Shown here: positions 4,090-52,617 of the stretch, piece after piece
Numbering within the stretch: position 1 is the first letter of the stretch
Layout of the letters: each line of letters starts with the position of its first letter
Assembly: GCA_002348265.1 (NCBI GenBank)
Contig: DEAT01000022.1
Span: forward strand, 131,792-195,791
DNA length: 64,000 bases
Origin: Gemmatimonadales bacterium UBA2975
GTDB lineage: Bacteria > Gemmatimonadota > Gemmatimonadetes > Longimicrobiales > Gaopeijiaceae
Direction: 5' to 3'
Notes under the pieces: generated by a model
Databases searched by the model: none
What the model saw: only the letters and a program-made list of their open reading frames with translations
Told to the model about the DNA's origin: nothing
Translations under genes and position numbers: made by a program

Positions 4090-4488
4090 GGTAAGTGGAG
4101 TCTTTACCAGTCGGCCGCTAGGCCAACAAGCAAACTTTAGCGCCCACCTCAGCTACACACCCTAGCGAGAAGGCCTCTCCACCTAGTTGCGCAACGAGCT
4201 CGCTGGGGCTTGCGTTTTACTTAAGCGCGGAACCGCAGGTTGAGGACGGTTTAGAAAATATGTGGTAACAAGGTCGTCAAAATAGTATTGCCCAACCCCG
4301 ATCAAACGAACGACGTGACCCAGGGCTCCAATTCTTCGGCCACTTGACAAAACCAATCAGTGTGACCGAAAATATACGGCTTAGGAGTTTACGGTTTGCC
4401 CTGAAAGACGGCAGTGCAGGTCATGGAGGAAACCCGGCGTCTGACCGATGACCGGAGTGCCTTGGACTCGAAGGAGAACGAATACACG

Positions 4489-5394
4489 ATGGCTGCGGCT
4501 ACGACGACGAAGCGTCGCAAGCGCCGAGGGAAAGGAAATCTCCTTTCCGGATTCGACGCCAGTGTAGAGGAACAAAGCGCTCTAGATCAGTACCTGCGTG
4601 ACGTCAGCCGGCATGAGCTTATCACTCCGGAACGTGAAAAGGAGCTCGGTGCACTAGCCCAGAAAGGTGATCAGGATGCCATTCAGGAGCTTGCTCGGGC
4701 AAACCTGCGTTTCGTAATCAGTGTCGCAAAGAAGTACCAAAATCGCGGCGTGTCGCTTACAGATCTCATCCAAGAAGGAAACGTGGGTCTTGTTACGGCT
4801 GCCCGAAAGTTTGATCCGGAGCAGGGCGTGAAATTCATCAGCTATGCCGTTTGGTGGATTCGACAGGCGATTCTTGCCTCTTTGGCGAACCACGGCCGGG
4901 CCGTTCGCGTTCCTCTGAATAGGGCGAGCGATCTAGCGCGAATTTTCCGAGAGAAAGAACGGCTAAAACAGGAAAAAGGCCGAGAGCCGACCACTGACGA
5001 ATTGGCTGAGGCTACTCATCTGACTCCAGAATTAGTGGAGTCTCTTCAGACGTTGAATTCCGCAGAAATAAGGCTAGACGCCCCTATCGGGGACTCGGAG
5101 GATTCTCAACTCGTTGAGCGATTTATAACGGAAGAGGCTGCAGAACCGGAGGTCGAGGTTGAGAGTCGGCTTTTAACGGAAACCATCACGGAGGCTCTTG
5201 AGACTCTTGAGCCACGAGATGCGAAAGTTCTTCGCCTATACTTTGGGCTCGAAGGCGAGCGAGAACATACACTGGAGGAAATCGGAAACATGCTTGGCGT
5301 GACGCGTGAACGAATCCGCCAGCTTCGCGATCGTGCCTTGCGTCGTCTGCGGGAAGGTGGGAAAGGCGGTGCACTGGAGTCCTTCGCCGCGTGA
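4489..5394 (+). CDS. rpoD: Primary-type sigma-70 family RNA polymerase sigma factor, short form without region 1.1
   Basis: Region 2 is LIQEGNVGLVTAARKFDPEQGVKFISYAVWWIRQAI and region 4 is TLEEIGNMLGVTRERIRQLRDRALRRLR. ATG 4489 is preceded by GAAGGAGAA about 10 nt upstream; the ORF track starts at GTG 4414. The product is ~301 aa. Confidence 0.85.
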   Translation: MAAATTTKRRKRRGKGNLLSGFDASVEEQSALDQYLRDVSRHELITPEREKELGALAQKGDQDAIQELARANLRFVISVAKKYQNRGVSLTDLIQEGNVGLVTAARKFDPEQGVKFISYAVWWIRQAILASLANHGRAVRVPLNRASDLARIFREKERLKQEKGREPTTDELAEATHLTPELVESLQTLNSAEIRLDAPIGDSEDSQLVERFITEEAAEPEVEVESRLLTETITEALETLEPRDAKVLRLYFGLEGEREHTLEEIGNMLGVTRERIRQLRDRALRRLREGGKGGALESFAA

Positions 5395-5447
5395 GACTCC
5401 GGGCCTGGTATTCGGGCCCATGGTCGAGCAGCCCCTGTCGGTACTTT

Positions 5448-5470
5448 GAGCCCCGGTAGGGGCTCTTTGG
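5448..5470 (+). terminator. Candidate intrinsic terminator after rpoD
   Basis: The hairpin is GAGCCCC-ggta-GGGGCTC (7-bp stem), followed by TTTGGTT, 54 nt after the rpoD stop. It lies in the 5' extension of the rsgA ORF, upstream of the more likely rsgA start. Confidence 0.4.
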
Positions 5471-5481
5471 TTCATGAACTC

Positions 5482-6393
5482 ATGACTACTTCGGGTACGT
5501 TCCTCGGTGTTGTGCATGAGACGGGTGGGGGCATCTACGCAGTGGTCCTAGAGACCGGGGAACGCGTAGATGCATACCTCCGCGGACGCTTAAAGAAGCA
5601 AGATCGCACTGGTCGTGCCGTAGTGATTGGGGACATCGTGGAAGTCCTGGTGGACGGCAATGAAGTGACAATTGAATCAGTTGAAAAACGGCAGACTGAA
5701 CTAGTACGGAGCGGAAGGAGTCGGGAGCCTAAAATCCTGGCGGCTAATCTGGATAGAGTCTTCGTGGTGATAGCGCTCCGTGAGCCTAGGGGCTCTACTC
5801 AGCTGATTGATCGGATGCTGACCTTAGTCCACGCCAGCGGAATGCGGCCTTTGCTAATCTTCAACAAAGCCGATTTGGAGGGCACAGAGGATCTCCAAGA
5901 GACTTGGCTGACTCTCTATAGAAAGATTGGTTACAAGGTATTTGTGACTAGTGTGCCTTCCGGAAAAGGTGTCGTTGAACTGCGCCGTGAACTGTGCGCT
6001 GGAACGTCTGCATTTATCGGACCCTCTGGTGTTGGAAAGTCATCTTTACTCAATGTTGTCGATCCGGGGCTTCAGCTTCGAATAGGTCGGTTGTCTCAAA
6101 AGACTGGGACAGGACGCCATACCACCGTGGGTGCTCGACTGATCACGCTGGAGTGTGGGGGATTAGTTGCAGACACGCCGGGTTTTGGTGACGTGGGCCT
6201 TTGGTCTGTGGACGCCGAGACGGTGGGCTCACACTTTCCAGAATTTGCTGAGAGCGCAGTGAATTGCCGATTTAGAGGCTGTACGCACTTACATGAGCCC
6301 GGATGCGCAGTCCTTGAAGAAGTTGGTAAGGGAGAGATTGCACGGTCTCGACATGAGAGCTATCGCTTTCTACGGGTCAAAGCAGAAGAGTAA
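5482..6393 (+). CDS. rsgA: Ribosome small-subunit-dependent GTPase A
   Basis: The GTPase is circularly permuted: G4 NKADL precedes G1 GPSGVGKSSLLN and G3 DTPGF. The C-terminal zinc motif CRFRGCTHLHEPGC is present. The start at ATG 5482 was chosen downstream of the terminator-like hairpin. Confidence 0.9.
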   Translation: MTTSGTFLGVVHETGGGIYAVVLETGERVDAYLRGRLKKQDRTGRAVVIGDIVEVLVDGNEVTIESVEKRQTELVRSGRSREPKILAANLDRVFVVIALREPRGSTQLIDRMLTLVHASGMRPLLIFNKADLEGTEDLQETWLTLYRKIGYKVFVTSVPSGKGVVELRRELCAGTSAFIGPSGVGKSSLLNVVDPGLQLRIGRLSQKTGTGRHTTVGARLITLECGGLVADTPGFGDVGLWSVDAETVGSHFPEFAESAVNCRFRGCTHLHEPGCAVLEEVGKGEIARSRHESYRFLRVKAEE

Positions 6394-27405: not shown

Positions 27406-28590
27406 TCAGCCCTCCAAAAACTCCATGATTTCTTCGTGGCGTGATGCTGCATCAGCCTCACCGATCTCCATAAGGGTACTTACGTAATCCTCTTGGAATA
27501 GGATGAGACTCAGGATGTCCGGTGAATCGGTTTCTCTTGTCCCCAAGCCCCGAGTGAGAAAGCGAATAGACCTAGGGAGCTTGATCTCGAATTGCGAGGC
27601 AAGCCTTCCGAGATCAACTGAGGGGCGGAGCACGAGTAGTTTGATCGGCTCTAGGCCATGACGCTGGCTCTCGGGGAGTGCTTCAACGAGACGATTTAGG
27701 CGTTCTAGGCGAAGCGCGTCGTGGTCCAGAAGATCCAGAAAGACCGCATTCAATAGGATGCCGGCCACCTGTGCAGGAGGAGGGTACCCACGGATGCTCG
27801 TATTATTGACTTCCTGCCTGCTCCGGTCGTAGCGATTTGAGATAGCTATTATTTTGCGAGCGCCTAGGTGGAGAACTGGCGCGAGCGGCGCGGTCAAGCG
27901 AATTCCCCCGTCTCCGTACCAATCGCCATCCAGTTGGATTGCCGGGAATAACAGAGGGAGTGCGGCAGATGCCATGATGTGGTTCACTGTGATGTTGGCT
28001 CTACGTGTCTCACGTTGTGGGCGTTCCCATGTCTCAATCTCACGACCCTGCAGCCATGTAACGGAAGACCCGGTCGAGTAGCTTGTTGTGGTAACGGCGA
28101 AGGCTTCGAGCCCACGGTGGTCGAGGTTGTACTGAACTCCGGTCAATTCGCGGTCCACGGCATGAAGCGCTTCGGACAGGTATGCGTCGAGTGGTGATGT
28201 GTCGACTAGGCTGCGGACGTTCAAGAGATCACTTCGGACGCCGCCACCGCCCAGTCTGCCGAGCCATCGGATACTGTTAAGCAATAGGGAGCGGGTGTCT
28301 ACACGAAAGACTTCGTCAACAGTGAGATCTCTCCAGAGGATTGAGAGCTCGTCGACAGCTTGAGCAAAGGTCCCGTGGTGGGAGGCCAGCACGGCTGCGT
28401 TGATCGCACCTGCCGAGACCCCGTGGATGAAGGGGATCTGGAGGTCTGGAGAATGCTTCGCGACATGACGCAGAAAGCCTACTTGGTAAGCTGCTCTGGC
28501 ACCGCCACCACCCATCACTAGCCCTAAGTCTCTGCGGGTATGCCTAGAGTGTGCCTCAGTCGTTCCCTTGCGAGAATCTAGGTTCTTCAT
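27406..28590 (-). CDS. Patatin-like phospholipase family protein
   Basis: The oxyanion motif is GGGGARAAYQVG, the nucleophile elbow is GVSAGAINA, and the catalytic Asp motif is GDGGIR. Confidence 0.85.
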   Translation of the reverse strand: MKNLDSRKGTTEAHSRHTRRDLGLVMGGGGARAAYQVGFLRHVAKHSPDLQIPFIHGVSAGAINAAVLASHHGTFAQAVDELSILWRDLTVDEVFRVDTRSLLLNSIRWLGRLGGGGVRSDLLNVRSLVDTSPLDAYLSEALHAVDRELTGVQYNLDHRGLEAFAVTTTSYSTGSSVTWLQGREIETWERPQRETRRANITVNHIMASAALPLLFPAIQLDGDWYGDGGIRLTAPLAPVLHLGARKIIAISNRYDRSRQEVNNTSIRGYPPPAQVAGILLNAVFLDLLDHDALRLERLNRLVEALPESQRHGLEPIKLLVLRPSVDLGRLASQFEIKLPRSIRFLTRGLGTRETDSPDILSLILFQEDYVSTLMEIGEADAASRHEEIMEFLEG

Positions 28591-28605
28591 CGGGTGTCCG
28601 TAGGA

Positions 28606-28998
28606 TCAGCCGATGATGGGGCGACCTATCGCCATGATACCAGCCGCTAGACATGCCAGCACAACAAGAGTCCCTATGAGGTGCGGAGTGAAGCTTTGGG
28701 CTTCAGGGGGGCGCCGCTTCATTACCCCGTGCACCACATGGGCTGTCACCACAGCAAGGACCATCATCATGATGTGTCCGGTGAGCTGAGGATAGAAATT
28801 GTCAGTGAAGATCACCACCAATAGCCCTAACAGGGCGGTTAGATCGACGACCCCAGTGAAGATCCCAGAGAGTATGCGCATACTTTTCCCATACTGACTC
28901 TTGGTTGCTAGCCCGTAAGCGGCATACGCAATAACAATGACGCCTGTTAACAGGACTAGATATCGGAAGCCGGAATGAGCGTGTAGAAGCATGGTCAA
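28606..28998 (-). CDS. Hypothetical four-helix membrane protein
   Basis: The 130-aa protein is entirely hydrophobic helices. It begins 15 nt downstream of the patatin gene on the same strand. No family was recognised. Confidence 0.5.
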   Translation of the reverse strand: MTMLLHAHSGFRYLVLLTGVIVIAYAAYGLATKSQYGKSMRILSGIFTGVVDLTALLGLLVVIFTDNFYPQLTGHIMMMVLAVVTAHVVHGVMKRRPPEAQSFTPHLIGTLVVLACLAAGIMAIGRPIIG

Positions 28999-29057
28999 TT
29001 GGTTAGTTGGGGAAATACTTAATCGCTTAGGTTGTGCGCTAATATTTTTGAGAACAT

Positions 29058-29720
29058 CTACCCTGAAATTTCAAGATTGATGCTGGTGAGACCGGGACCG
29101 ATCTCGACGGAGCGCGGTGCCTGGAAACCGCTTGCGGCGGTCCAAAGTTGCAGTGTGTATGTGCCTACGGGCACCGAGTCGAGAGCGAAGCTCCCGTCAG
29201 TCTGGGCGAAGACCGAGTGCGTTGCCTCGGATACGAAGATGAAAGCCGTCATGCCGGGATGCATGTCACAGATTACGTCGTAACCGCCCGCAGCCAAGAG
29301 TTGAACCACTAGTTGTTCGCCCGGATTGGCATCCGCATCGATAACGTCGATTGTATCACCGAACGCACGAAGACGCACATTATGGGAAAGATCGGACTCA
29401 CTGTTCGTGAAGGTGATAGGATCACCTTTGTCTGCTAGCAGATACCTAGGCGAAAAGGTTAGACCGAATTGGTCAATAGTGAATAGCGACGCTGTTTTTT
29501 CGATCTCCGGCGAGGCTCCTGCTGGAGAAAGCATGATCACGCTGGGTACACCACCTGATGCAGCCGGACTCTGACCGTGCACCCCTTGCATAGGCAGTGT
29601 CTCGATGGCATCCCCAGAGGTAGGGGCCCCTGAGGGTGGCATTTCGAAATCGCAGGCGGTTAGCATGACAAATATGCTTGGGACGATCAGCGTGCGTTGG
29701 AGGCGTTGCTGAGGTCTCAT
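29058..29720 (-). CDS. Lipoprotein with type-1 copper (cupredoxin/plastocyanin-like) domain and C-terminal CarboxypepD_reg-like beta-sandwich
   Basis: The lipobox is VMLTAC. The copper ligand pattern is SHNV ... CDMHPGM (His, then Cys-x2-His-x2-Met). The C-terminal DGSFALDSVPVGTYTLQLW is typical of the carboxypeptidase-regulatory fold. Confidence 0.68.
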   Translation of the reverse strand: MRPQQRLQRTLIVPSIFVMLTACDFEMPPSGAPTSGDAIETLPMQGVHGQSPAASGGVPSVIMLSPAGASPEIEKTASLFTIDQFGLTFSPRYLLADKGDPITFTNSESDLSHNVRLRAFGDTIDVIDADANPGEQLVVQLLAAGGYDVICDMHPGMTAFIFVSEATHSVFAQTDGSFALDSVPVGTYTLQLWTAASGFQAPRSVEIGPGLTSINLEISG

Positions 29721-33697: not shown

Positions 33698-36628
33698 CTA
33701 TGCTGTTGTCTGGGCTTCTTCGCCGAGCGCTTCAATTATGACCGCGTTCTGTGATTCAGCGTGGCTCGATGTTTTTCCTTCAGCTGGGCTGGCGCGTTCG
33801 GGACGGGCTGCGTACGAGAGCGGCACTTTGCGGGGCACTATGGCTCTTAGCCGTGGCCCGATGAAGGTGAGTGCCCCCATGTTTCGGGGTTCTTCCTGAG
33901 CCCAGACGACCTCGGTTACGTTGGGGTATAGTTCGAGTAGGGATGCAATCGCCGGAGCTGGGAATGGGTATAGCAACTCGACCCGGCCAATCGCTACGTG
34001 ATTAGATTTCTTGCGAAGAGGGTGGCCCTGGATGTCGTAGTATACCTTGCCCGTGCAGAGCACGAGCCTGGTAACGGCAGCTGTATCTTCCACGTCTGGA
34101 TCGGCGATCACAAGTCTGAAGCCACCTTTGGTCAATTCGGAAACCTCAGAGGTTGCCATCGGGTGGCGCAGCAGGCTTTTCGGAGTCATCACGATCATGG
34201 GGCGCTCCGGACGTCGCAGTGCCTGGCGCCGAAGCATGTGAAAATACTGTGCGGGCGTAGTGGGGTAAGTGACCCGCATATTGCGTTCCGCACACAGCTG
34301 GAGAAATCGCTCAAGTCGGGCGCTTGAGTGTTCTGGCCCTTGGCCTTCAGCCCCGTGAGGAAGCAGGAGCGAGAGGCGAGAGTACTGACCCCATTTGGTC
34401 AGCCCGGATGAGATGAACTGGTCGATCATCACTTGGGCGACATTCACGAAATCACCGAACTGGGCTTCCCAGAGCACCACGTCAGTATCAGCTGCTACGG
34501 AGTAGCCGTATTCGAAGCCAATGACTGCCGTTTCAGTCAGGGGTGAGTTGTACGTTTCAAACCGAGCTTCCGACAGATTGTCGAGCGGTACGAACTCCTG
34601 ACCGGTTTCCGCGTCGTGCAGCACCACGTGGCGGTGACTGAATGTCCCCCGCTCTGCATCTTGGCCAGTTAGCCGAACGGGGATCCCTTCCCTGAGCAGG
34701 CTACCGAAGGCGAGCGCTTCCGCGTGACCCCAATCCAAAGATAGGTCAATCGAGAAGGTTTCTTTGCGCTTTCCTAGCTGGCGCCAGAGTTTTGGGTGAG
34801 GTGTGAAGCCTTCCGGGAGATCTACAGTCGCAGCATTGACTTCTTCAAGGACCTTAAGCGCCACTCCCGTTGTTTCAGGGACGACTGGGATTTCTCGTTC
34901 TGCATCAGGTGTGTCGTCCTCTGCTGGATCGAAGTCACGCACATTATCCTGTACATCGCGTAGATTCTGTGTGATCTCTTTTTGTATCGCTTGAATGTCG
35001 TCGGAAGTGATCACACCATCTGCGATCAGTCGTTCAGAATAGATTTGACTGACTGTCGGGTGTGCGCTGATGGATCTGTACTTCACTGGCTGAGTGTAGG
35101 CAGGTTCGTCCCCTTCATTGTGTCCGTGGCGTCGATAACCAACGAGGTCGATTACAAAGTCCTCGTGAAACTCGCGACGGTAAGCCATACCAAGCCTTAC
35201 TGCGGCGAGACAAGCCTCGGGGTCGTCCGCGTTAACGTGAATTATTGGGATGCCATAGCCCTTTGCCAGATCGCTCGAATAGAGCGTGGAGCGTCCCTCC
35301 ATCGGATCGGTTGTAAAGCCAATCTGGTTGTTCACGATGATGTGGACTGTTCCGCCCACTCTATATCCCTTAAGTCGAGCCATGTTAAGGGTTTCAGCAA
35401 CAACACCTTCTGCTGCGAATGCTGCGTCGCCATGCATCAACACGGGAACAACCGAGTCGTAGTCGACAGTCGACGCGCCCGCCACCTGGTCGGACTGCTT
35501 AGCTCTGGTCATACCAATAACAACAGGGTTTACGAACTCTAAGTGACTCGGGTTTGGGGCAAGCGTGACCCGCACTTTTCCGCCGCCATCCACATCTCTA
35601 GTACCACGAGCGCCGTGATGGTATTTCACATCACCCGTTCCTGCGACGTCTAGCTGTCCGCCCTTGAATGATGGGCCCTCAAACTCAGCGAGGAGTTCCC
35701 CATATGAGACACCCACCGTATGGGTCAGGACATTGAGGCGGCCCCTGTGAGCCATGCCGAGGACTACTTCCGCACCACCACCTCTCGCAGTTTCTTCAAT
35801 GACCAGGTCGAGCATAGGGACTAGGGTGTCATTGCCCTCAAGGCTAAATCGCTTCTGACCCAGATATGTCTTGTGAAGAAATTGCTCAAGGCCCTCCGCT
35901 TCGCAAATTCTACGGAGAAGGTTCTTCCTCTGTGCTGCACTTTGTTTGGGCAAGTGATTTCCAGCTTCGACCTGTCTCCATAGCCAGTCGACTTTTACAT
36001 GATCATCAAGGTGTTCGAACTCATAGCCGATCGATCCGGCATAGATGTCACCCAGATCGTTGAGAGCATCTGCGACGGATCGATCTCCGTTTTCATCGGG
36101 TAGGATTAATGAAGCGGGTAGCTTACCGAGTTCCTCAGCCGACGTCCCAAAGAATGCTGGAGAAAGCTGCGGATGTCCCGGAGGTTCAGACCCGAGAGGA
36201 TCGATAATTGCTAAACGATGTCCGTGGTCGCGAAATGCTTGCACAAGTGCGGTGGCCCGAGAGACAGCAGGTAAGAGCCCAACGAGCGCTCGTGCGTTTT
36301 CATCTAGGCTCTCTGCTGCCGGCCCCGACGGGGTTGCGGAGGCAGAAGGCGTACTTTGGGCCTTAGAAGGCGCAGAAGCGGGCTCTGCCTCTAGGCCTTT
36401 TGCTACCTCCGTGTGCGCATTTGAGTTTGTGAGTTGTTCTGGAGCTAGAAGACCTGTTGGGATAGCGACGTCGCCGTCTCTCTCAAATAGTTGACGCCAT
36501 TCTTTGGGCACAGCGTCTGGATTTCGAGCGTACTGCTCGAAAATCGCCTGAGCGTAGGCGGCGTTTTGGCTATCGAAAAGGGTGTCGTCCTGCACGTTTT
36601 GCCGGGCCCTGATTGATGAGGAACGCAT
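33698..36628 (-). CDS. sucA: 2-oxoglutarate dehydrogenase E1 component
   Basis: The N-terminal block is NAAYAQAIFEQYARNPDAVPKEWRQLF. GMAHRGRLNVL and HGDAAFAAEGVVAETLNM are also present, and the ~976-aa length fits. Confidence 0.9.
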   Translation of the reverse strand: MRSSSIRARQNVQDDTLFDSQNAAYAQAIFEQYARNPDAVPKEWRQLFERDGDVAIPTGLLAPEQLTNSNAHTEVAKGLEAEPASAPSKAQSTPSASATPSGPAAESLDENARALVGLLPAVSRATALVQAFRDHGHRLAIIDPLGSEPPGHPQLSPAFFGTSAEELGKLPASLILPDENGDRSVADALNDLGDIYAGSIGYEFEHLDDHVKVDWLWRQVEAGNHLPKQSAAQRKNLLRRICEAEGLEQFLHKTYLGQKRFSLEGNDTLVPMLDLVIEETARGGGAEVVLGMAHRGRLNVLTHTVGVSYGELLAEFEGPSFKGGQLDVAGTGDVKYHHGARGTRDVDGGGKVRVTLAPNPSHLEFVNPVVIGMTRAKQSDQVAGASTVDYDSVVPVLMHGDAAFAAEGVVAETLNMARLKGYRVGGTVHIIVNNQIGFTTDPMEGRSTLYSSDLAKGYGIPIIHVNADDPEACLAAVRLGMAYRREFHEDFVIDLVGYRRHGHNEGDEPAYTQPVKYRSISAHPTVSQIYSERLIADGVITSDDIQAIQKEITQNLRDVQDNVRDFDPAEDDTPDAEREIPVVPETTGVALKVLEEVNAATVDLPEGFTPHPKLWRQLGKRKETFSIDLSLDWGHAEALAFGSLLREGIPVRLTGQDAERGTFSHRHVVLHDAETGQEFVPLDNLSEARFETYNSPLTETAVIGFEYGYSVAADTDVVLWEAQFGDFVNVAQVMIDQFISSGLTKWGQYSRLSLLLPHGAEGQGPEHSSARLERFLQLCAERNMRVTYPTTPAQYFHMLRRQALRRPERPMIVMTPKSLLRHPMATSEVSELTKGGFRLVIADPDVEDTAAVTRLVLCTGKVYYDIQGHPLRKKSNHVAIGRVELLYPFPAPAIASLLELYPNVTEVVWAQEEPRNMGALTFIGPRLRAIVPRKVPLSYAARPERASPAEGKTSSHAESQNAVIIEALGEEAQTTA

Positions 36629-36687: not shown

Positions 36688-37503
36688 TTGTCTCTACGCT
36701 CGCTCAATATACACCCCCATTTTACGCGCATGGATTGTGTCCGAATTGTCACCGAGTTTACTGAATCAGAAATCTCTGCGCTTGTGCACCCAGAGTGGTT
36801 TGAGGCGTTTCCATGGCTTTTGCAAGGCACGACTACGCGAGGCTCAGCCGGTGCCCCGCCATTTGACTTCGGTCTTTTCGGAGAGACTAGCAGACCGCGA
36901 GAAGCACGGGAACGATGGAGTACGCTCCAACAGAGGCTCGGTGCTCGAGGAGTTGTGTATTCGCAACAGGTTCACGGGGCGGATGTTTGCGAGTACGAAG
37001 AGCACTCAAGTGGAATCAGTGGACTAGAGCTTGTAGATCCTTGTGATGGGCATGTCACTTCTACACCGGGACTTCTTCTTGCCGTCACTGCAGCCGATTG
37101 TGTGCCGGTTTTCGTGATCGATCCGGAGCGAAGGGCTGTAGCAGTTCTGCACGCCGGATGGCGCGGTGCGGCTGCGGGTGTGATCGAGTCTGGTGTAAAG
37201 AAAATGGCTTCGGCTTTTGCGAGCCGGGCAGAGGATCTCAGGCTACATATGGGTCCTGCGATTTGCGGTACGTGCTACGAGGTTGGTCCTGAGGTGTTTG
37301 CAGCGCTGCGGGAACCAGTCCCGGATCGTCCTGCACCCATCGATCTCCGACATGTGCTGGCAGAGCATGCGGTGCGGTTGGGGGTGAGTAGAGCCGCAGT
37401 CACTATCTCAGCACACTGCACAATATGCACAGAGTCAGGCTTGTTTTCGCATCGAAAAGGGCACAGGGAGCGCCAAGTTGGATACATCGGAGTTCTGGAC
37501 TGA
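36688..37503 (+). CDS. pgeF: Peptidoglycan editing factor PgeF / YfiH (DUF152 laccase-domain) family
   Basis: QVHGADV, VTAADCVPVFVID, LHAGWRGAAAGV, CGTCYEVG and LFSHRKGH are all present. Confidence 0.8.
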   Translation: MSLRSLNIHPHFTRMDCVRIVTEFTESEISALVHPEWFEAFPWLLQGTTTRGSAGAPPFDFGLFGETSRPREARERWSTLQQRLGARGVVYSQQVHGADVCEYEEHSSGISGLELVDPCDGHVTSTPGLLLAVTAADCVPVFVIDPERRAVAVLHAGWRGAAAGVIESGVKKMASAFASRAEDLRLHMGPAICGTCYEVGPEVFAALREPVPDRPAPIDLRHVLAEHAVRLGVSRAAVTISAHCTICTESGLFSHRKGHRERQVGYIGVLD

Positions 37504-37532: not shown

Positions 37533-37715
37533 ATGCGATGTGTGCACCATCGTGTCACGGGTAACCGACGAGGGTCGCAGTTTTATCTTTGCAGCCTCGC
37601 CATGACTGATCCACGTCTACGAAAGTATCCGAGCTTGCCCGTCCTTCGTTGCGAGGGCTTCGAGTTAGATGAACAATCCAATGATAAAGGGAGAGAAAAC
37701 GAATCTCATGAATGA
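37533..37715 (+). CDS. Small (60 aa) Cys/His-containing conserved-looking hypothetical protein
   Basis: The translation is MRCVHHRVTGNRRGSQFYLCSLAMTDPRLRKYPSLPVLRCEGFE..., with Cys3, His5/6, Cys20 and Cys40. Its stop (37713-37715) overlaps the downstream ATG 37708 region. From memory it resembles an uncharacterised 'YP..PV..C.G' small-protein family. Confidence 0.45.
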   Translation: MRCVHHRVTGNRRGSQFYLCSLAMTDPRLRKYPSLPVLRCEGFELDEQSNDKGRENESHE

Positions 37716-38175
37716 AACATCTCTATACGTAACACGGGCTACCGTCGAAAAAATCGACGGGCTGCACCGTCGAGGAGTGCTGGAGGATGGGACCACGCTC
37801 GAGTTTGGAGTGCACGGCCCCATCAAGGCACACTACGGACTGGAGTCCCAGCCCAATCTGCCGCTGCCGGTCGATTATTTGGTGGCCGCAGCTGCTGGCT
37901 GACTACTCGGAACATTAAATGGCGCACTGGAGGTGCGCGGGATACCAGTTTCGGACGGCGACATCAGTTGCACGGTGGAAGGGATGAACGAAGTCGTGGA
38001 TAGGATCATCCTCCTAACAAAGATCCACGTCCACTATACGCTCCGGCTGCCGCCAGAGGCTTCGGAGGACAGAGTGTCTCGGGCGTTGGAGACTCATGTG
38101 AGCAAGTGTCCGACGGCTCAGTCGATCAAGGACTCAGTGGAGATCTCCTGGTCAGTGGAGTTTGTCGGAGGTTAG
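37708..38175 (+). CDS. OsmC/Ohr-family peroxiredoxin-like protein with in-frame UGA (candidate selenocysteine, codon 65)
   Basis: Track ORFs 37669-37902 and 37933-38175 are in the same frame, separated only by TGA 37900-37902. The read-through gives ...PVDYLVAAAAG-U-LLGTLNGALEVRGIP...THVSKCPTAQSI.... This matches the OsmC pattern (LL.AALA.C....L ... CPV), with the UGA at the first catalytic Cys and the second Cys retained (38107-38109). AAGGGAG lies ~12 nt upstream of ATG 37708. Confidence 0.7.
37922..37938 (+). promoter_or_regulatory. Candidate bacterial SECIS hairpin
   Basis: The hairpin is GCGCAC-uggag-GUGCGC, a perfect 6-bp GC-rich stem with a G-containing 5-nt loop. The stem starts 19 nt and the loop 25 nt after the UGA, within the usual window for bacterial SECIS elements. 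Confidence 0.5.
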
Positions 38176-47197: not shown

Positions 47198-50100
47198 ATG
47201 GCTCTACGGACGTTCGGAATGAACACCGCGAAGGCGGCTCGCAATTTTGCGATTGCTATAGCCTTCATGGTGTTTGGCGCAGTCGGAGTAACTGCGCAGA
47301 ACACCGGTACGGTTACCGGCCTAGTCCGCGATGCGACGACTTTGGCACCCCTGGCGGGTGCTCAGGTTTCGGTCGAAGGAACGGGTGTAGGTGGCCTGGT
47401 CAACAATGTTGGCCGATTCCTGCTGTTAAATGTTCCAGCAGGGACACAGACGGTGAACGTCACTATGATCGGCTATGGTGCCGCATCGGCGACGGTCAGC
47501 GTTACGGCAGGTGGTACTGCCACTTTGGATTTCGAGATGAGAGAGCAGGCTCTTTCTCTTGAGGGTGTGGTCGTGACCGGTACTGCCGGACAGGCTCGCC
47601 GTCGTGAGGTGGGTAACTCTATCGAGTCCGTTGGAGCCGCTGACATTGCGGTTGCAGCGATTACAGACGTCTCGAACGTTCTTCAGGGCCGCGCGGCCGG
47701 TGTTTCGATTTCCGGTACGGATGGGCAGGTTGGCGCCGGTTCAGAGATCCGGATTCGCGGTAACAGCTCGATTTCTCAGAGCAACCGTCCGCTGATCTAC
47801 GTCGATGGTGTCCGGATGGAGAACGATGCTCTTATGTCGGCGGATGAAGGTGCCGCTGGTACGATGGCTATCGACGGCATTAACCCGAACGACATCGATC
47901 GTATTGAGATCGTCAAGGGCCCTGCTGCTACGACCCTTTATGGAACGGAAGCCGCAGGTGGCGTTATCCAGATCTTCACGAAGCGTGGTTCTGCGGGTGC
48001 ACCTGCGTGGACGGTGACTGTTGATCAGGGTATGCAGCGCATGGGTCACCAAGGCCCGCAGACGGCTGCAGATGTGAAGGCGATGTCTAACTACTTCACG
48101 AGGAATAACCCAGACGTCTATCCGACCGGCGACTACAACGTCGACTATCTCCTTCCTGAAGGGGATATCGGTAACAGCAACGGTCTTCGTTTGAACGACT
48201 GTGCGTCTGGAGATCCGATGTCTCAGTATCCCACGATTGACGGCTATGGTGCTGAGCCTGGCTGTCCCGAGAGCGGTTCTTGGTTCCGTGACGCTTCAAT
48301 GCAGCGTTACAACCTGAGCGTCCGCGGCGGTGGTGAGACAGCGACGTACTTTGTCTCTGGCCGTTGGGCAGACGAGCAGGGTGTCGTGGATCCGCAGGGT
48401 CAGCAGAGCTACAACCTGCGCACTAACGTGCAGTTCCAGCCGATGGATGGACTGGACGTCAGCCTAAACAACATGTACACGAAGAGGAACATTACTTGGA
48501 TCCCGAACGGTAACAACGCCTCGGGTCTGTTCCTTAACGTGTTGCGTGGTGAGCGCGGATACACCCCGGGCAACGACGATTCATTAGTGATGTTCAATGA
48601 CATCGCCACCAACCAGTCGCAGTGGGTTACCTCTGCGTCGATCGGTTGGACCCCGACCGCGAACTTCTCGCACCGTCTCAACTTTGGGATGGACTACACA
48701 TACGTCGACTTCGTCGACTTCAAGCCCTACGACAACTACGAGAACCCTCTGGGTGACCGAGAGAACGACCAGTACAACGACCGTAACATGACCTTCGATT
48801 ACAACGGGTCGTGGCGGACGGACATTATGGACGGGATCTCATCCTCCTTTTCATGGGGTGGTCAGGTCTATGAGGAGTTCAGCTGGCGTCTAAACGGCTT
48901 TGACTCTGATTTTGCTGGTCCTGGTGACCAGCTACTCGGTGACGGTACGGATCAGGACGTCAACGAGAGTCGCCTCACGGTCCGCTCGGGTGGGTTCTTC
49001 CTCCAGGAGCAGATCGGCTTCGGCGACCGTCTATTCTTAACTGGTGGTATTCGCTGGGACGGCTTCTCCACGTTCGGTTCGGGCTTCGGCCTTGCCGCGT
49101 ATCCGAAGATCGCCGGTGCGTATACCATTTCGGATGAATCCTTCTTCCCTGAAGGTCTCTTCGACGCTCTTAAGCTGCGTGCAGCTTGGGGTAAGTCCGG
49201 TCGCGCGCCAGGTGCGTTCGATGCTGTGAAGATCTACGAAGCCACGCAGGCTGATGAGGTCGTTCCGGCACTCATTATCGGTAACCTCGGTAATGCGGAC
49301 CTCGGCCCGGAAGTCTCAACAGAACTCGAGATGGGTTTCGAGGCTTCTATGCTAGATGGTCGGATGTCGATTGACTTTACGAAATACGACCAGACGACGA
49401 GAGACGCTCTTATCGGTGTGCAGGAGGCTCCCTCCTTCGGCACGGAAGAGGCCACACTGCGCAACCTCGGTGAGACGACTAACAAGGGATACGAAGCAAT
49501 CCTGAACGTGTCCCCGGTACGGTCGGATTTCCTAGACTGGAACGTGAACTTCTCATACTCGTCGAACGAGTCTGAGATCACGGACCTTGGTCCTCTCCAA
49601 AATGCTGGCGGAAACCTGCAGCTAGGTTTCCCGATTGGCGTGGAGTACGATCCAGTTGTTATGAATCCGACTGCTGTTGGGCAGGCTGAAGACACAGAAC
49701 TGGCCGTTCTGGGCGTCGTATTCCCGCAGGAGATCATTGCGCTAGGTACTCGCATGACGTTTAGCCAAGCGCTAACACTGGACGTGCTGTTTGAGAGCCA
49801 GCTTGGTCACTCGCGGACAATCGGTATCGGTTGGGCCACTGCTCGTCGCGAGACGTGGCCTCACTGCTTCGGTATTCAGAATGAGTTCAACGCCAACGGC
49901 AGAACGAACCTGACGCCGAACCAAGTAGTGACATGCGTGCCTGGTAAGATTGACTGGGGTGCATGGACACAGGATGCTGACTTCATCAAGCTCCGCTCGG
50001 CTTCGCTGTCTTACCGTCTTCCGGATGATCTCATTCCGGGAACGCGCAGCGTGAGCCTCTCACTGCAGGGTAAGAATCTCTGGCAGACGACAGACTACCA

Positions 50101-50215
50101 GGGCCTAGATCCCGAGGCGACAGACCGTGGTCTGGATCGCGGCGAGTACGCGTTCGAGTACTACAACATGGCGCCGCCGAGGATCGTAATCCTCAACATG
50201 CAGGTGAACTTCTAA
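47198..50215 (+). CDS. SusC/RagA family TonB-linked outer-membrane transporter
   Basis: The protein has a signal peptide, a CarboxypepD_reg segment (GTVTGLVRDATTLAPLAGAQVSVEG), a plug (IRIRGNSSISQSNRPLIYVDGV, IEIVKGPAATTLYGTEAAGGVIQIFTK), a long barrel and a C-terminal aromatic residue (..MQVNF). Confidence 0.9.
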   Translation: MALRTFGMNTAKAARNFAIAIAFMVFGAVGVTAQNTGTVTGLVRDATTLAPLAGAQVSVEGTGVGGLVNNVGRFLLLNVPAGTQTVNVTMIGYGAASATVSVTAGGTATLDFEMREQALSLEGVVVTGTAGQARRREVGNSIESVGAADIAVAAITDVSNVLQGRAAGVSISGTDGQVGAGSEIRIRGNSSISQSNRPLIYVDGVRMENDALMSADEGAAGTMAIDGINPNDIDRIEIVKGPAATTLYGTEAAGGVIQIFTKRGSAGAPAWTVTVDQGMQRMGHQGPQTAADVKAMSNYFTRNNPDVYPTGDYNVDYLLPEGDIGNSNGLRLNDCASGDPMSQYPTIDGYGAEPGCPESGSWFRDASMQRYNLSVRGGGETATYFVSGRWADEQGVVDPQGQQSYNLRTNVQFQPMDGLDVSLNNMYTKRNITWIPNGNNASGLFLNVLRGERGYTPGNDDSLVMFNDIATNQSQWVTSASIGWTPTANFSHRLNFGMDYTYVDFVDFKPYDNYENPLGDRENDQYNDRNMTFDYNGSWRTDIMDGISSSFSWGGQVYEEFSWRLNGFDSDFAGPGDQLLGDGTDQDVNESRLTVRSGGFFLQEQIGFGDRLFLTGGIRWDGFSTFGSGFGLAAYPKIAGAYTISDESFFPEGLFDALKLRAAWGKSGRAPGAFDAVKIYEATQADEVVPALIIGNLGNADLGPEVSTELEMGFEASMLDGRMSIDFTKYDQTTRDALIGVQEAPSFGTEEATLRNLGETTNKGYEAILNVSPVRSDFLDWNVNFSYSSNESEITDLGPLQNAGGNLQLGFPIGVEYDPVVMNPTAVGQAEDTELAVLGVVFPQEIIALGTRMTFSQALTLDVLFESQLGHSRTIGIGWATARRETWPHCFGIQNEFNANGRTNLTPNQVVTCVPGKIDWGAWTQDADFIKLRSASLSYRLPDDLIPGTRSVSLSLQGKNLWQTTDYQGLDPEATDRGLDRGEYAFEYYNMAPPRIVILNMQVNF

Positions 50216-51636
50216 TGCGTAACTGGACGAGAAGGGCCGGACTTCCGGCAGTGGCCGCTTTTGCGGTCGTCCTCTCCGGGTGTGACCTTGAAGTTCTCAA
50301 CCCGGGAGCTATCCAAGACGCTGACGTGGTGACTCCTGAACTCATGCCGGTGCTCGTTGCGGGCGCCTCGGCTGAGTACAACGATGTGCAGGACAACTAC
50401 GCGTTCGATATTGCGCGCTTGAGCGACGAACTTGCCGGTACGGGATCGTATGGCTCAACGCAGGATTTCCGGACGGGTTTCTACACCGACCAGGACGCCG
50501 AAGGCGACTGGGAGCAGATGCATGAGGCTGCTTGGGCCGCAGGTCAGGCGTGGACTCGCCTGCAAGAGGTCCTGGGGGGCTCTGAGAGTTCTTCAGTCCT
50601 CGGTGCACGTCTATTCGTGTACCAAGGACATGCCTACATGCGACTCGGTGAAGCATACTGCAAGGTAGCTTTTGACATTGGTCCGTCTGAGCCTCGGGCG
50701 AACGCTTTTGCCAGGGCGAAAGCTTCGTTCGATCAGGCTTATACGATCGCTAGTGCTGCCGGTTCAGGTGCTGATAAGTGGCGTCTTGCAGCAAAATTAG
50801 GTCAGGCCCAGGCCGAGTTCGGCATGGCCGTTGAGGGTACCGGCTCGTGGGCGACTGCTTCGGCTGCAGCCGCGGCAGCGATCGCTGAGCCAGGCATGAC
50901 GATCGACTTTTCAGACGATGCGATCTATGCCCAAGGTGCTAACGCGAACCTCTTCTGGATCGAAACGTGGAATCGCGCCGAGGTCGGCGTGTACCGCACT
51001 CTAGCTCAGGCTATGTATGAGAATGAGGCGGATCCACGCACGAAGTTCACGAAGTGTGGTGAGTGGAACGACCTAGCGTCTGCTTACCCGGACAACATTC
51101 CGGGTGGAGTGACGAAGACAGGAAACTGCGATGGTGACGGTTCCGGTGCCCACCAGGGCGCGGACGGCGACCATGCGCATTATCGTCAGGATATCTATGA
51201 CGATCGTGGGTCCGATATCCCGAGAGCTTCGGCGATCGAGATGTACATGATCATGGCTGAGGCTGCCCTTCAGGGTACGCCGGATTACGCCACGTTCATC
51301 GGACACATTAACACTGTTCGTGCTCACCACGGTCTGGCTGCTATCGCGGCGCCGACTGCGATGGGTAACTTCCTGCAGTGGCCGTATACCGCTGATGACG
51401 TGACGGACGCGAACGCCTCTACGGCTAACGCGATTCTTGACCGTGAGAGGTATGCGAACCTCTGGATGCAGGGTAAGCGCCTGTATGACCTCGAGCGTTG
51501 GAACCACCCGTTCCTAACGACCGACGGTTGGATTACTGGTAGTACCTCCGTTGCGGATCGGGTGTCTTGTTTCCCGATGCCTCGTAACGAGTGTCAGCTG
51601 AACCCGAACATGGCAGGTGATCCGGCTTGCGGTTGA
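50215..51636 (+). CDS. SusD/RagB family nutrient-binding outer-membrane lipoprotein
   Basis: The lipobox is VVLSGCD. The gene immediately follows susC-like with a TAATG overlap. The protein is TPR-like and helical, with composition and length typical of SusD. Confidence 0.82.
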   Translation: MRNWTRRAGLPAVAAFAVVLSGCDLEVLNPGAIQDADVVTPELMPVLVAGASAEYNDVQDNYAFDIARLSDELAGTGSYGSTQDFRTGFYTDQDAEGDWEQMHEAAWAAGQAWTRLQEVLGGSESSSVLGARLFVYQGHAYMRLGEAYCKVAFDIGPSEPRANAFARAKASFDQAYTIASAAGSGADKWRLAAKLGQAQAEFGMAVEGTGSWATASAAAAAAIAEPGMTIDFSDDAIYAQGANANLFWIETWNRAEVGVYRTLAQAMYENEADPRTKFTKCGEWNDLASAYPDNIPGGVTKTGNCDGDGSGAHQGADGDHAHYRQDIYDDRGSDIPRASAIEMYMIMAEAALQGTPDYATFIGHINTVRAHHGLAAIAAPTAMGNFLQWPYTADDVTDANASTANAILDRERYANLWMQGKRLYDLERWNHPFLTTDGWITGSTSVADRVSCFPMPRNECQLNPNMAGDPACG

Positions 51637-51672
51637 CGTGACCGGGTAGCATTTGCAGGGGCAGTAACGACG

Positions 51673-51700
51673 GCCCCCACCGGCAGTTGCCGGTGGGGGC
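51673..51700 (+). terminator. Strong hairpin after susD-like gene (terminator candidate)
   Basis: GCCCCCACCGGCA-gt-TGCCGGTGGGGGC is a 13-nt perfect inverted repeat, 37 nt after the stop codon. The downstream tract is only weakly T-rich. Confidence 0.5.
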
Positions 51701-51759
51701 TCGTCAATTCTAGGTCGTTCGTATCTCTGTTTAACGAAACCCCTAAGGAGGGGACTTGT

Positions 51760-52617
51760 ATGAGCGACGACGTAGCCTTCGAAGGCCAGATAACGTTATC
51801 TGGTGAGCCAGGCACTAAACTGAGTCTATTATCTGCGGTACGTCGCCTCGTGGTATTCCTGATAGGGGTCTGCATAGCTATTGGGATCTCATTGGAGTCC
51901 TTGGCTGGTCAGACGCTGCGAGGGAGAATCCTTGACAGTGAAACGCGGGATCCGGTTAGGCTTGCCTATGTTGGGTTATTGACTGAGGGAGAAAGCATGG
52001 CGGTTGCTACTCTGGCGGATACCGCGGGCTTTTTTGAGATAACGGCTCCCGACCCGGGCCCGTACTTCGTTTATATCTCACGATCCGGGTACGAAACGAT
52101 TATGGATGGTGTCTTCGAACTTGGATACAAGGCTGAGCTGGACGTGCGGATTGGTATGAAGCCACTTCCCATCGAACTGGATGAGGTGCTTGTCGAGATA
52201 GAGCGTGGGACAGCCGACTTCCTCGAGCGAAACGGGTTTTACGAAAGAGCGATCACAGGTCGCGGCGTTCTCATGCTAAGGGAAGATATAGAGCGGTTTG
52301 CGATCAATAGGGTGAGCGACGTGATGAGACGCATCCCACTGTTAGATATCGATGACTCTCGTCCGCTTGCTGGGCCAGAGTCCTTCCGGAATCCGGAGAT
52401 CAGAGTTGTACGCAACGGACAATATTGCTCTCCGACCTTGTACATTGACCGGAACTTAGTGAACTCGGGAAGTCTCGGGTCAGTGAGACCTGACGATTAC
52501 GTCTCGGTGGTGGAGATCGACGCTATCGAGGTTTATGCTCGTTCGAGTGAGGTTCCCGTCGGTTTCGATGAGATCAATAATTGCGGGGTGATCCTAATCT
52601 GGACCCGGACTCGCTGA
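51760..52617 (+). CDS. Second stand-alone CarboxypepD_reg plus plug-like protein (no beta-barrel)
   Basis: AAGGAGG lies upstream of the ATG. LRGRILDSETRDPVRLAYVGLL...GFFEITAPDPGPYFVYISRSGYE is a CarboxypepD_reg segment. VSDVMRRIPLLDI ... PTLYIDRNLV ... EIDAIEVYARSSEVPVGF...CGVILIWTR is a plug-like segment. Confidence 0.62.
   Translation: MSDDVAFEGQITLSGEPGTKLSLLSAVRRLVVFLIGVCIAIGISLESLAGQTLRGRILDSETRDPVRLAYVGLLTEGESMAVATLADTAGFFEITAPDPGPYFVYISRSGYETIMDGVFELGYKAELDVRIGMKPLPIELDEVLVEIERGTADFLERNGFYERAITGRGVLMLREDIERFAINRVSDVMRRIPLLDIDDSRPLAGPESFRNPEIRVVRNGQYCSPTLYIDRNLVNSGSLGSVRPDDYVSVVEIDAIEVYARSSEVPVGFDEINNCGVILIWTRTR

Follow-up and report, generated by a model that had tools for sequence, protein, structure and literature searches.

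A UGA-interrupted OsmC-fold gene of Gemmatimonadota as a probable selenoprotein gene

One OsmC-fold gene spanning an in-frame UGA

We analyzed a 64,000-nt stretch of contig DEAT01000022.1 from Gemmatimonadales bacterium UBA2975. This whole stretch is called the window below, and all coordinates are positions within it. With high confidence, the segment 37708-38175 is a real and intact single selenoprotein gene, which encodes a protein of the OsmC fold and in which UGA codon 65 is decoded as selenocysteine (Sec). Two short open reading frames (ORFs), 37669-37902 and 37933-38175, have a common frame here, and the TGA at 37900-37902 is the sole break between them. Translation through this codon gives 155 codons from ATG 37708 to TAG 38173-38175, with a single in-frame TGA. 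The read-through product is MNETSLYVTR...PVDYLVAAAAG-U-LLGTLNGALEVRG...HVSKCPTAQ...FVGG. An earlier reading of the window, made from the sequence only, had already proposed that the two ORFs are parted by nothing but this TGA and that read-through yields one 155-residue OsmC-fold sequence. The coordinates agreed with the sequence, and both the translation and the match to the Pfam family PF02566 described below bore out the single product. The gene and its central codon are as follows.

37708-38175, + strand: complete gene of an OsmC-fold protein, very probably a selenoprotein, 155 codons, with Sec-UGA as codon 65 (translation, Pfam OsmC, codon-position entropy, AlphaFold2 (AF2) model of a Cys homologue)
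37900-37902, + strand: UGA codon 65, very probably read as Sec, at the first (peroxidatic) Cys position (TGA in 161 of 163 loci; aligned to Cys in the full-length homologue P0001 and in the structures 1ukk, 1ml8 and 1vla)

The two sides of the TGA evolve like parts of one coding sequence. Among 155 distinct genes, the part upstream of the TGA had mean entropies of 0.65/0.47/1.31 bits at codon positions 1/2/3, and the downstream part had 0.80/0.62/1.35 bits. Third positions thus had about twice the entropy of positions 1 and 2 on either side. Because of this excess on both sides, both halves are judged to be translated in this frame, and they are under purifying selection. TGA is also the commonest normal stop in the window, where it terminates 17 of the 33 long open frames; therefore, UGA is not reassigned in this genome.

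The first Met of the homologues aligns to ATG 37708, which was taken as the start. A possible ribosome-binding element lies upstream of it.

37687-37695, + strand: Shine-Dalgarno-like AAGGGAGAG, 12 nt 5′ of the likely start codon (read from the sequence; putative function)

Inside the gene there is also a 7-bp inverted repeat, TCGACGG/CCGTCGA, at 37754-37773. It falls within the stretch encoding K-I-D-G-L-H-R-R and comes after A6. A pattern scan marked this repeat as terminator-like on the minus strand.

Conservation of the UGA among relatives

A protein search covering 5.8 billion sequences returned 32 matches, nearly all of which were half-proteins that end or start exactly at the UGA column. 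The N-terminal fragments stop at ...VAA(A/T)(A/G)(G/A) and the C-terminal fragments begin with (M)LGTLNGALEVRG. Public records of this gene are thus fragments, including those sourced from NCBI. This agrees with what the sequence-only reading had expected of standard gene callers, namely that such genes are split: two ORFs were called here and public records are mostly halves. Only one of the 32 matches was full-length with Cys at the column (P0001), and two had a Trp ("W") there. At the DNA level, the "W" of P0002 is a TGA (L082:89-613), and the caller had also read through a second TGA. This gene call, from the Joint Genome Institute (JGI), took two in-frame TGAs of L082 as Trp, as if genetic code 4 or 25 applied, and produced a spurious 174-residue protein. 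The first TGA is probably the Sec codon and the second the true stop.

Relatives were then counted at the DNA level. When one genome per GTDB species was scanned, 325 genomes had a relative, and the best 80 of the 325 were taken as loci. Nearly all of these 80 were metagenome-assembled genomes (MAGs) of Gemmatimonadota/Longimicrobiales, and a stop stood at the column in every one (80/80). One of them, L001 (Gemmatimonadales UBA7835), shares 96% identity with the window protein. A metagenome scan, which used N-terminal motifs as bait and ranked matches by similarity to the Cys form, gave 80 further loci, with TGA in 79 and TGC in one. When all 163 loci were combined, 161 had TGA and two had TGC. 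Nearly all of them come from Gemmatimonadota/Longimicrobiales MAGs or from metagenome contigs; they comprise 153-155 distinct sequences, and protein identity goes as low as about 55%. The TGC forms were P0001/L081 and L084. The sequence-only reading had named one outcome that would indicate a pseudogene, in which orthologues show the same split with no conserved hairpin. The opposite was found, as the split occurs together with the conserved hairpin described in the next section.

When P0001 was searched exhaustively against 1.84 billion representatives, 56 of the 71 full-length representatives of the subfamily had Cys at both columns. In the same search, the Sec clade appeared as fragments starting at query residue 64 or ending at residue 62. 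On these alignments, the wider subfamily is best described as an ordinary two-Cys OsmC-like group, with the Sec clade as one branch within it. Many Cys forms also have the peptide G-A-L-E-(A/V)-R.

A more distant sequence, L173:198-245 (JGI Ga0679480_0351094), is about 39% identical and has a TGA at the same column (...LDHIIAAVAG*MTGTLAGALAARKIP...HEKGCPASQ). Its downstream sequence differs and offers an alternative 7-bp hairpin, CGCUAGC/GCUAGCG, although the fold was not significant against shuffled sequences. Judging from this sequence, a second branch of the subfamily seems to have Sec as well and may have a SECIS (Sec insertion sequence) of its own.

Some loci raised questions of assembly or labelling. 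L041 and L042 (JAPPNF01, "Deltaproteobacteria" RHO3_bin_65) are locally identical copies on two contigs of one sponge MAG, with about 520x coverage. A few MAGs labelled "Deltaproteobacteria", such as L006 ("Deltaproteobacteria UBA4427"), carry the gene, which is otherwise seen in Gemmatimonadota. Over the compared segment L006 equals L007 (Gemmatimonadetes), and this identity suggests mis-binning or mislabelling.

A hairpin maintained together with the UGA

Downstream of the UGA, the sequence-only reading had pointed to a perfect GC-rich stem as a candidate SECIS, and its stem, loop and distance from the TGA were all verified.

37922-37938, + strand: SECIS-type hairpin, stem 37922-37927/37933-37938 (GCGCAC/GUGCGC), loop 37928-37932 (UGGAG); U37928 and G37932 can pair
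37903-37921, + strand: spacer from UGA to stem, 19 nt (25 nt from UGA to loop, 37903-37927); synonymous sites vary freely

In the bacterial SECIS (bSECIS) model (PMC13188914), the apical loop has 3-9 nt, the upper stem has 4-16 bp and the loop lies 16-37 nt from the UGA. A G is placed in the first two loop positions, typically as N1-G-[G|U]-N-N2, in which N1 pairs with N2, and the minimum free energy is -7.5 kcal/mol or lower (PMC13188914). The window hairpin agrees with the model in all respects, with a 5-nt loop of the form N1-G-G-N-N2, a 6-bp stem, a 25-nt spacing and -11.3 kcal/mol. The SelB-type geometry that had been claimed for it was therefore upheld, the more so as relatives show compensatory changes. 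The folding test that had been proposed gave a divided answer. The 71-nt region 37895-37965 was not significant by itself (z = -1.49), whereas the 21-nt hairpin segment was (-11.3 kcal/mol, z = -3.96; none of 200 shuffles was as stable). A longer SECIS with a lower stem taken from the 71-nt fold was considered and rejected, because the lower stem is not conserved and RNAalifold retained only the 6-7-bp hairpin.

Conservation of the pairs was tested in 136 distinct 69-nt segments. Standard pairs were found in 99.6% of pair cells, compared with 2.5-67% when the 3′ partners were slid. Compensatory changes were seen at two pairs, with A-U replaced by G-C in 11 sequences. In L120, C-G became U-A and A-U became G-C, by which the peptide A-L-E-V was changed to V-L-E-A. 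RNAalifold on the relatives predicted the same hairpin and nothing else. Constraint was also evident in codon choice. The codons +7 to +13 (GGC GCA CTG GAG GTG CGC GGG) had a synonymous entropy of 0-0.3 bits, compared with 1-1.9 bits for codons of Gly, Ala, Leu, Val and Arg elsewhere in the gene. GCA, an Ala codon that is rare otherwise, was used in 136 of 153 Sec forms, exactly where the A-U pair forms, and CTG in 149 of 153.

The comparison with the Cys forms was the most informative. All six stem pairs were present in 151 of 153 Sec forms and in only two of 10 Cys forms (Fisher P = 1.9e-10), and the loop started with U-G-G in 149 of 153 and two of 10, respectively (Fisher P = 2e-9). The local energy had a median of -11.3 kcal/mol in Sec forms, and it ranged from -0.4 to -14.2 kcal/mol in the Cys forms, which used many synonymous codons at the hairpin positions. 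Because the stem and the loop G are maintained in UGA forms and not in Cys forms, the hairpin probably works as a SECIS. In our reading of these alignments, this Sec-specific constraint, especially on the loop G, which in the model is the hallmark of recognition by SelB, is the strongest evidence for that role. As evidence for Sec, the hairpin thus stood in one respect and lost ground in another: it is conserved specifically with the UGA, but the stem alone is weaker evidence than had been assumed, as it also arises in some Cys forms.

Two further groups of sequences were noted. In the TGC forms L163, L167 and L084, this site already folds into a stable GC hairpin (-10.6 to -14.2 kcal/mol) simply because GC-rich codons encode the G-A-L-E-(A/V)-R peptide, and it is possible that such hairpins are a pre-adaptation for SECIS acquisition. 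The TGA forms nearest to the Cys forms, L083, L085, L090 and L091 (TGA positions about 3023, 885, 3190 and 3190), have G-A-L-A-V-R and a loop UCGCC whose first two positions have no G. L083 keeps five of the six stem pairs and L091 keeps four; these forms may use another structure or may be decaying.

Protein family, fold and catalytic residues

When Cys was put at residue 65, residues 52-148 of the window protein matched PF02566 with 55.1 bits (cut-off 27.5; E = 1.1e-14). The UGA column paired with the first conserved Cys of 1ukk, 1ml8 (YhfA) and 1vla; the alignments were weak (E = 0.04-0.3), but they were consistent. It also corresponds to Cys63 of P0001. Residue 134 paired with the second Cys of Thermus thermophilus OsmC (1ukk), and likewise with that of 1ml8 and 1vla. 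The columns of residue 65 and Cys134 are both at least 97% conserved. The alignment to PF02566 and to Cys orthologues thus placed the UGA at the first conserved, peroxidatic Cys, as the sequence-only reading had supposed from the motif, with 1ukk, 1ml8, 1vla and P0001 all in agreement. The second Cys, said to be retained 69 residues after the UGA, was found there as TGT 38107-38109. The conserved residues in and around the putative active site are listed below.

38107-38109, + strand: TGT, Cys134, motif H-x-x-K-C-P, second (resolving) Cys of the OsmC fold (invariant in alignments; aligned to the second Cys of 1ukk)
37768-37773, + strand: Arg21-Arg22, motif HRR, candidate equivalent of the OsmC/Ohr catalytic Arg (conserved at 97% or more across 155 distinct genes; catalytic role presumed)
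37873-37875, + strand: Asp56, motif PLPVDY, candidate counterpart of the OsmC/Ohr catalytic Glu that precedes the Cys helix (at least 97% conserved; presumed equivalent)

A catalytic Arg and Glu beside the peroxidatic residue are present in OsmC and Ohr and absent in YhfA (PMC8945050). From their conservation, Arg21-Arg22 and Asp56 may be the counterparts of these two residues.

The structure was predicted on P0001, a 58%-identical Cys homologue that stood in for the window protein. The AF2 model had a mean predicted local distance difference test score (pLDDT) of 86.8 and a predicted template modelling score (pTM) of 0.83. In this model, Cys63 is part of a long helix (53-74), and Cys131 is found where the chain kinks from helix 117-130 into helix 132-137. 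The top 50 Foldseek matches of the P0001 model in the PDB were all of the OsmC/Ohr/YhfA type, with probability 1.00. Models of the individual subgroups did not take in the protein. The window protein scored 14.7 bits against OsmC proper (TIGR03562, cut-off 85.8) and 23.8 bits against the SACOL1771 peroxiredoxin (TIGR03563, cut-off 166). For Ohr (TIGR03561, cut-off 88.9), no score was reported for the window protein and P0001 had 14 bits.

Sec machinery and genomic surroundings

We looked for Sec machinery by tblastn, with Escherichia coli SelA, SelB and SelD serving only as bait. Nothing below E = 0.5 was found in the window and the 80 loci L001-L080, and neither a tRNA nor an RNA family was detected in the 64-kb window by ARAGORN and Rfam. 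One locus could be linked to published data. L050, which has the gene with the TGA and the hairpin, is contig MPNE01000002.1 of "Gemmatimonadetes bacterium bin94", and bin94 is the Gemmatimonadetes bin MPNE00000000 of Slaby et al. 2017 (PMC5649159). In Table S4 of that study (PMC5649159), bin94 is listed with one count each of COG1921 SelA, COG3276 SelB and COG0709 SelD, and the other Gemmatimonadetes bin, bin43, has equal counts of the three. No survey statement was found in the literature on the Sec trait in Gemmatimonadota; only this per-bin COG table was informative.

The window has 75 pairs of ORFs joined by an in-frame TGA, three of which are large. None of the three was accepted as a read-through gene, each consisting of neighbours that share a frame: a sigma-70 factor and an RsgA-like GTPase at 4405-6393, a membrane protein and a patatin-like protein at 27406-29070, and a SusD-like protein and a downstream gene at 50074-52617. 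Across all loci, the other conserved in-frame-TGA clusters were Arg/Pro/Ser-rich off-frame artefacts, and only the OsmC cluster was real.

No conserved redox partner gene was found nearby in the syntenic loci, where sucA, aminotransferase and hydrolase genes were not recurrent. The sole recurrent neighbour was an upstream same-strand gene of the Cu-oxidase_4 (PgeF/YfiH) type, present in 34 loci and located at 36688-37503 (+ strand) in the window. A gene for 2-oxoglutarate dehydrogenase E1 lies at 33698-36628 (- strand), about 1 kb upstream. Since lipoylated proteins recharge OsmC/Ohr enzymes, its proximity deserves mention, but the two genes are close together in only five loci.

Weighing of the alternatives

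Several results weigh against a selenoprotein. The genes selA, selB, selD and tRNA-Sec are absent from the 64-kb window and from the 1.43 Mb of syntenic loci, and the flanks yielded no second selenoprotein gene. The machinery evidence for bin94 is another group's COG table for a MAG, which represents a relative and not the source genome. Rfam gave no family match in the window. The stem also results in part from the encoding of G-A-L-E-(A/V)-R by GC-rich codons, and the Cys forms L163 and L167 have all six pairs. The absence of Sec machinery from the window sequence and the syntenic loci would also suit a UGA read through in a selenium-free way, by a near-cognate Trp or Cys tRNA, with the hairpin only stimulating read-through or causing a pause. 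One gene caller indeed translated the codon as W, but that caller had read through a second TGA as well. In addition, the codon stands in place of a redox-active Cys (the classic Sec/Cys pair), the hairpin fits the SelB-type bSECIS model including the loop G-G, and a MAG carrying the gene (bin94) is listed with SelA, SelB and SelD. Read-through of this kind is therefore improbable. The hairpin might also have no recoding role. It could simply result from G-A-L-E-V-R being encoded by GC-rich codons, or it could act on the minus strand as the terminator of the convergent aminotransferase gene. The stems of L163 and L167 agree with the former, and a pattern scan that called the hairpin terminator-like on the minus strand agrees with the latter. 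A by-product would hardly give six of six pairs in 151 of 153 Sec forms and in two of 10 Cys forms with the same peptide (P = 1.9e-10), a UGG loop start in 149 of 153 against two of 10, or a rare GCA that is nearly fixed where the A-U pair is made. As for a terminator, the minus-strand T-rich tail lacks conservation, most loci having GTTGAG there, and the aminotransferase gene is a neighbour in only 11 loci. We consider a hairpin of this sort very improbable.

Two further explanations deny that one protein is made at all. Residues 1-64 and 66-155 might be made separately and then assemble, with translation restarting right after the TGA. Many relatives do have TGAATG, which resembles stop-start coupling. 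Yet about half of the loci, and the window too, continue with CTA, CTG or CTC, and no start codon comes before the GTG inside the stem there. Because the uninterrupted Cys forms also have Met at that position (C-M-L), the ATG after the TGA is explained by the protein sequence. The break would also fall in the middle of the catalytic helix, with loss of the catalytic residue, and a truly split gene seems extremely improbable. The last explanation is a pseudogene, or a sequencing or assembly error in which TGA stands for TGC/TGT and two dead fragments are left. It would account for the two ORFs given by gene callers and for public databases that hold only halves. However, 161 of 163 loci, assembled independently and drawn from various species and samples with protein identities as low as about 55%, have this same TGA. 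The excess of third-position variation typical of translated genes is seen on either side of it, and the hairpin is conserved with compensatory changes. We give this explanation almost no credence.

Proposed decoding and chemistry

If the gene encodes a selenoprotein, as we think, its decoding would follow the established bacterial mechanism. SelB-GTP-Sec-tRNA(Sec) would bind the hairpin 37922-37938 through its U-G-G-A-G loop as the ribosome meets the UGA, and Sec would be inserted at codon 65 in place of termination. By the OsmC/Ohr mechanism (PMC8945050), Sec65 on the long helix of the folded homodimer would attack a hydroperoxide. Cys134 would then resolve the selenenic acid to a selenenylsulfide, and a dithiol donor, for example a lipoylated protein, would reduce this again. 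Lipoylated proteins are the reductants of OsmC/Ohr (PMC8945050). By analogy with these systems we infer SelB binding, selenium incorporation, peroxidase activity and the identity of the reductant.

Implications

OsmC-like selenoproteins have been known since 2005, and the Gemmatimonadota branch is not covered by the curated model. We suggest only tentatively, with rather more doubt than confidence, that the protein may be the characteristic selenoprotein of Gemmatimonadota. It would then represent an OsmC-subfamily clade that is present in more than 300 species-level genomes, has Sec all but fixed (UGA in about 99%) and is missed by the curated model. Its SECIS may have been exapted from a hairpin to which G-A-L-E-(A/V)-R in GC-rich codons was already prone. 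Such a predisposition of a conserved peptide would explain Sec in the divergent branch L173, where the downstream sequence is different.

For annotation, the consequence is that in hundreds of Gemmatimonadota/Longimicrobiales genomes and many metagenome contigs the gene stands either as two pieces labelled "hypothetical" or "OsmC-like" or with a spurious Trp. Building a profile of the clade would mend these annotations and would flag Sec decoding in a phylum not mentioned in the selenoproteome reviews consulted. The data also provide evidence for widespread Sec decoding in Gemmatimonadota. With 155 residues, a 17-nt SECIS and rare Cys sisters, the gene is a compact natural system suited to comparing Sec with Cys in OsmC-type peroxide reduction. 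The putative SECIS is drawn almost wholly from synonymous sites of a conserved peptide motif. Because Cys forms already make part of the structure, the joint origin of a new Sec codon and its SECIS becomes a concrete and testable question.

Comparison with known systems

The sequence-only reading had stated that OsmC-like proteins with Sec were reported from marine metagenomes, and the literature confirmed this. The Sargasso Sea survey described three OsmC-like selenoprotein sequences with the motif UxxT (Zhang, Fomenko & Gladyshev 2005, PMC1088965), and the Global Ocean Sampling (GOS) survey counted five Sec and 161 Cys homologues of this known family (PMC2398784). OsmC-like selenoproteins also appear in reviews of 2022 and 2026, and there is an NCBIfam model, NF041052, "OsmC-related (seleno)protein". 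The window protein shares with the Sargasso/GOS type the OsmC fold (PF02566), the replacement of the first conserved Cys on the catalytic helix by Sec and the retained second Cys. Both have a bacterial SECIS-type hairpin just downstream of the UGA and U-L-L at the Sec, and BLASTP aligns the Sec columns.

The differences are considerable. Against NF041052 (cut-off 95 bits), the window protein scored 35.1 and its Cys homologue 32.7, whereas the Sargasso prototype AACY01145085 scored 157.4. Identity between the window protein and the prototype is 30%, over 37 residues only. The redox motif is U-L-L-G-T (UxxxT) in the window and U-L-L-T (UxxT) in the Sargasso/GOS type, and the hairpins are GCGCAC-UGGAG-GUGCGC and GAAGCG-GUA-CGCUUC, respectively. 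The window clade belongs to GC-rich Gemmatimonadota, in contrast to the AT-rich marine reads of the Sargasso type (GIGF-U-LLTQLKRYA). Sec prevails in the window clade (161:2), whereas it is the minority in the known GOS family (5 Sec, 161 Cys), and only the Sargasso type is present among the GOS supplement sequences. From its sequence, the window gene would work like a known OsmC-like selenoprotein, yet it is placed outside the curated family NF041052.

The fold and the positions of both redox residues are also shared with the two-Cys OsmC/Ohr/YhfA proteins (E. coli OsmC 1qwi/1nye, 1ukk, Ohr 1n2f/6eb4 and YhfA 1ml8). By analogy with two-Cys OsmC/Ohr, the window protein is likely to be a homodimeric hydroperoxide reductase that forms an intramolecular (seleno)disulfide. 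Unlike OsmC/Ohr/YhfA, it would have Sec as the peroxidatic residue, and it has its own motifs HRR, GVHGPIK and PLPVDY. The Cys sisters P0001, P0037 and P0040, with the motif (T/P)LDY..A..GC(L/M).GT..GALE(A/V)R, have 29-58% full-length identity to the window protein. They share its motifs and the G-A-L-E-(A/V)-R after the catalytic residue; however, they have TGC in place of TGA, and in such Cys forms the stem and the loop G-G are not maintained (2/10).

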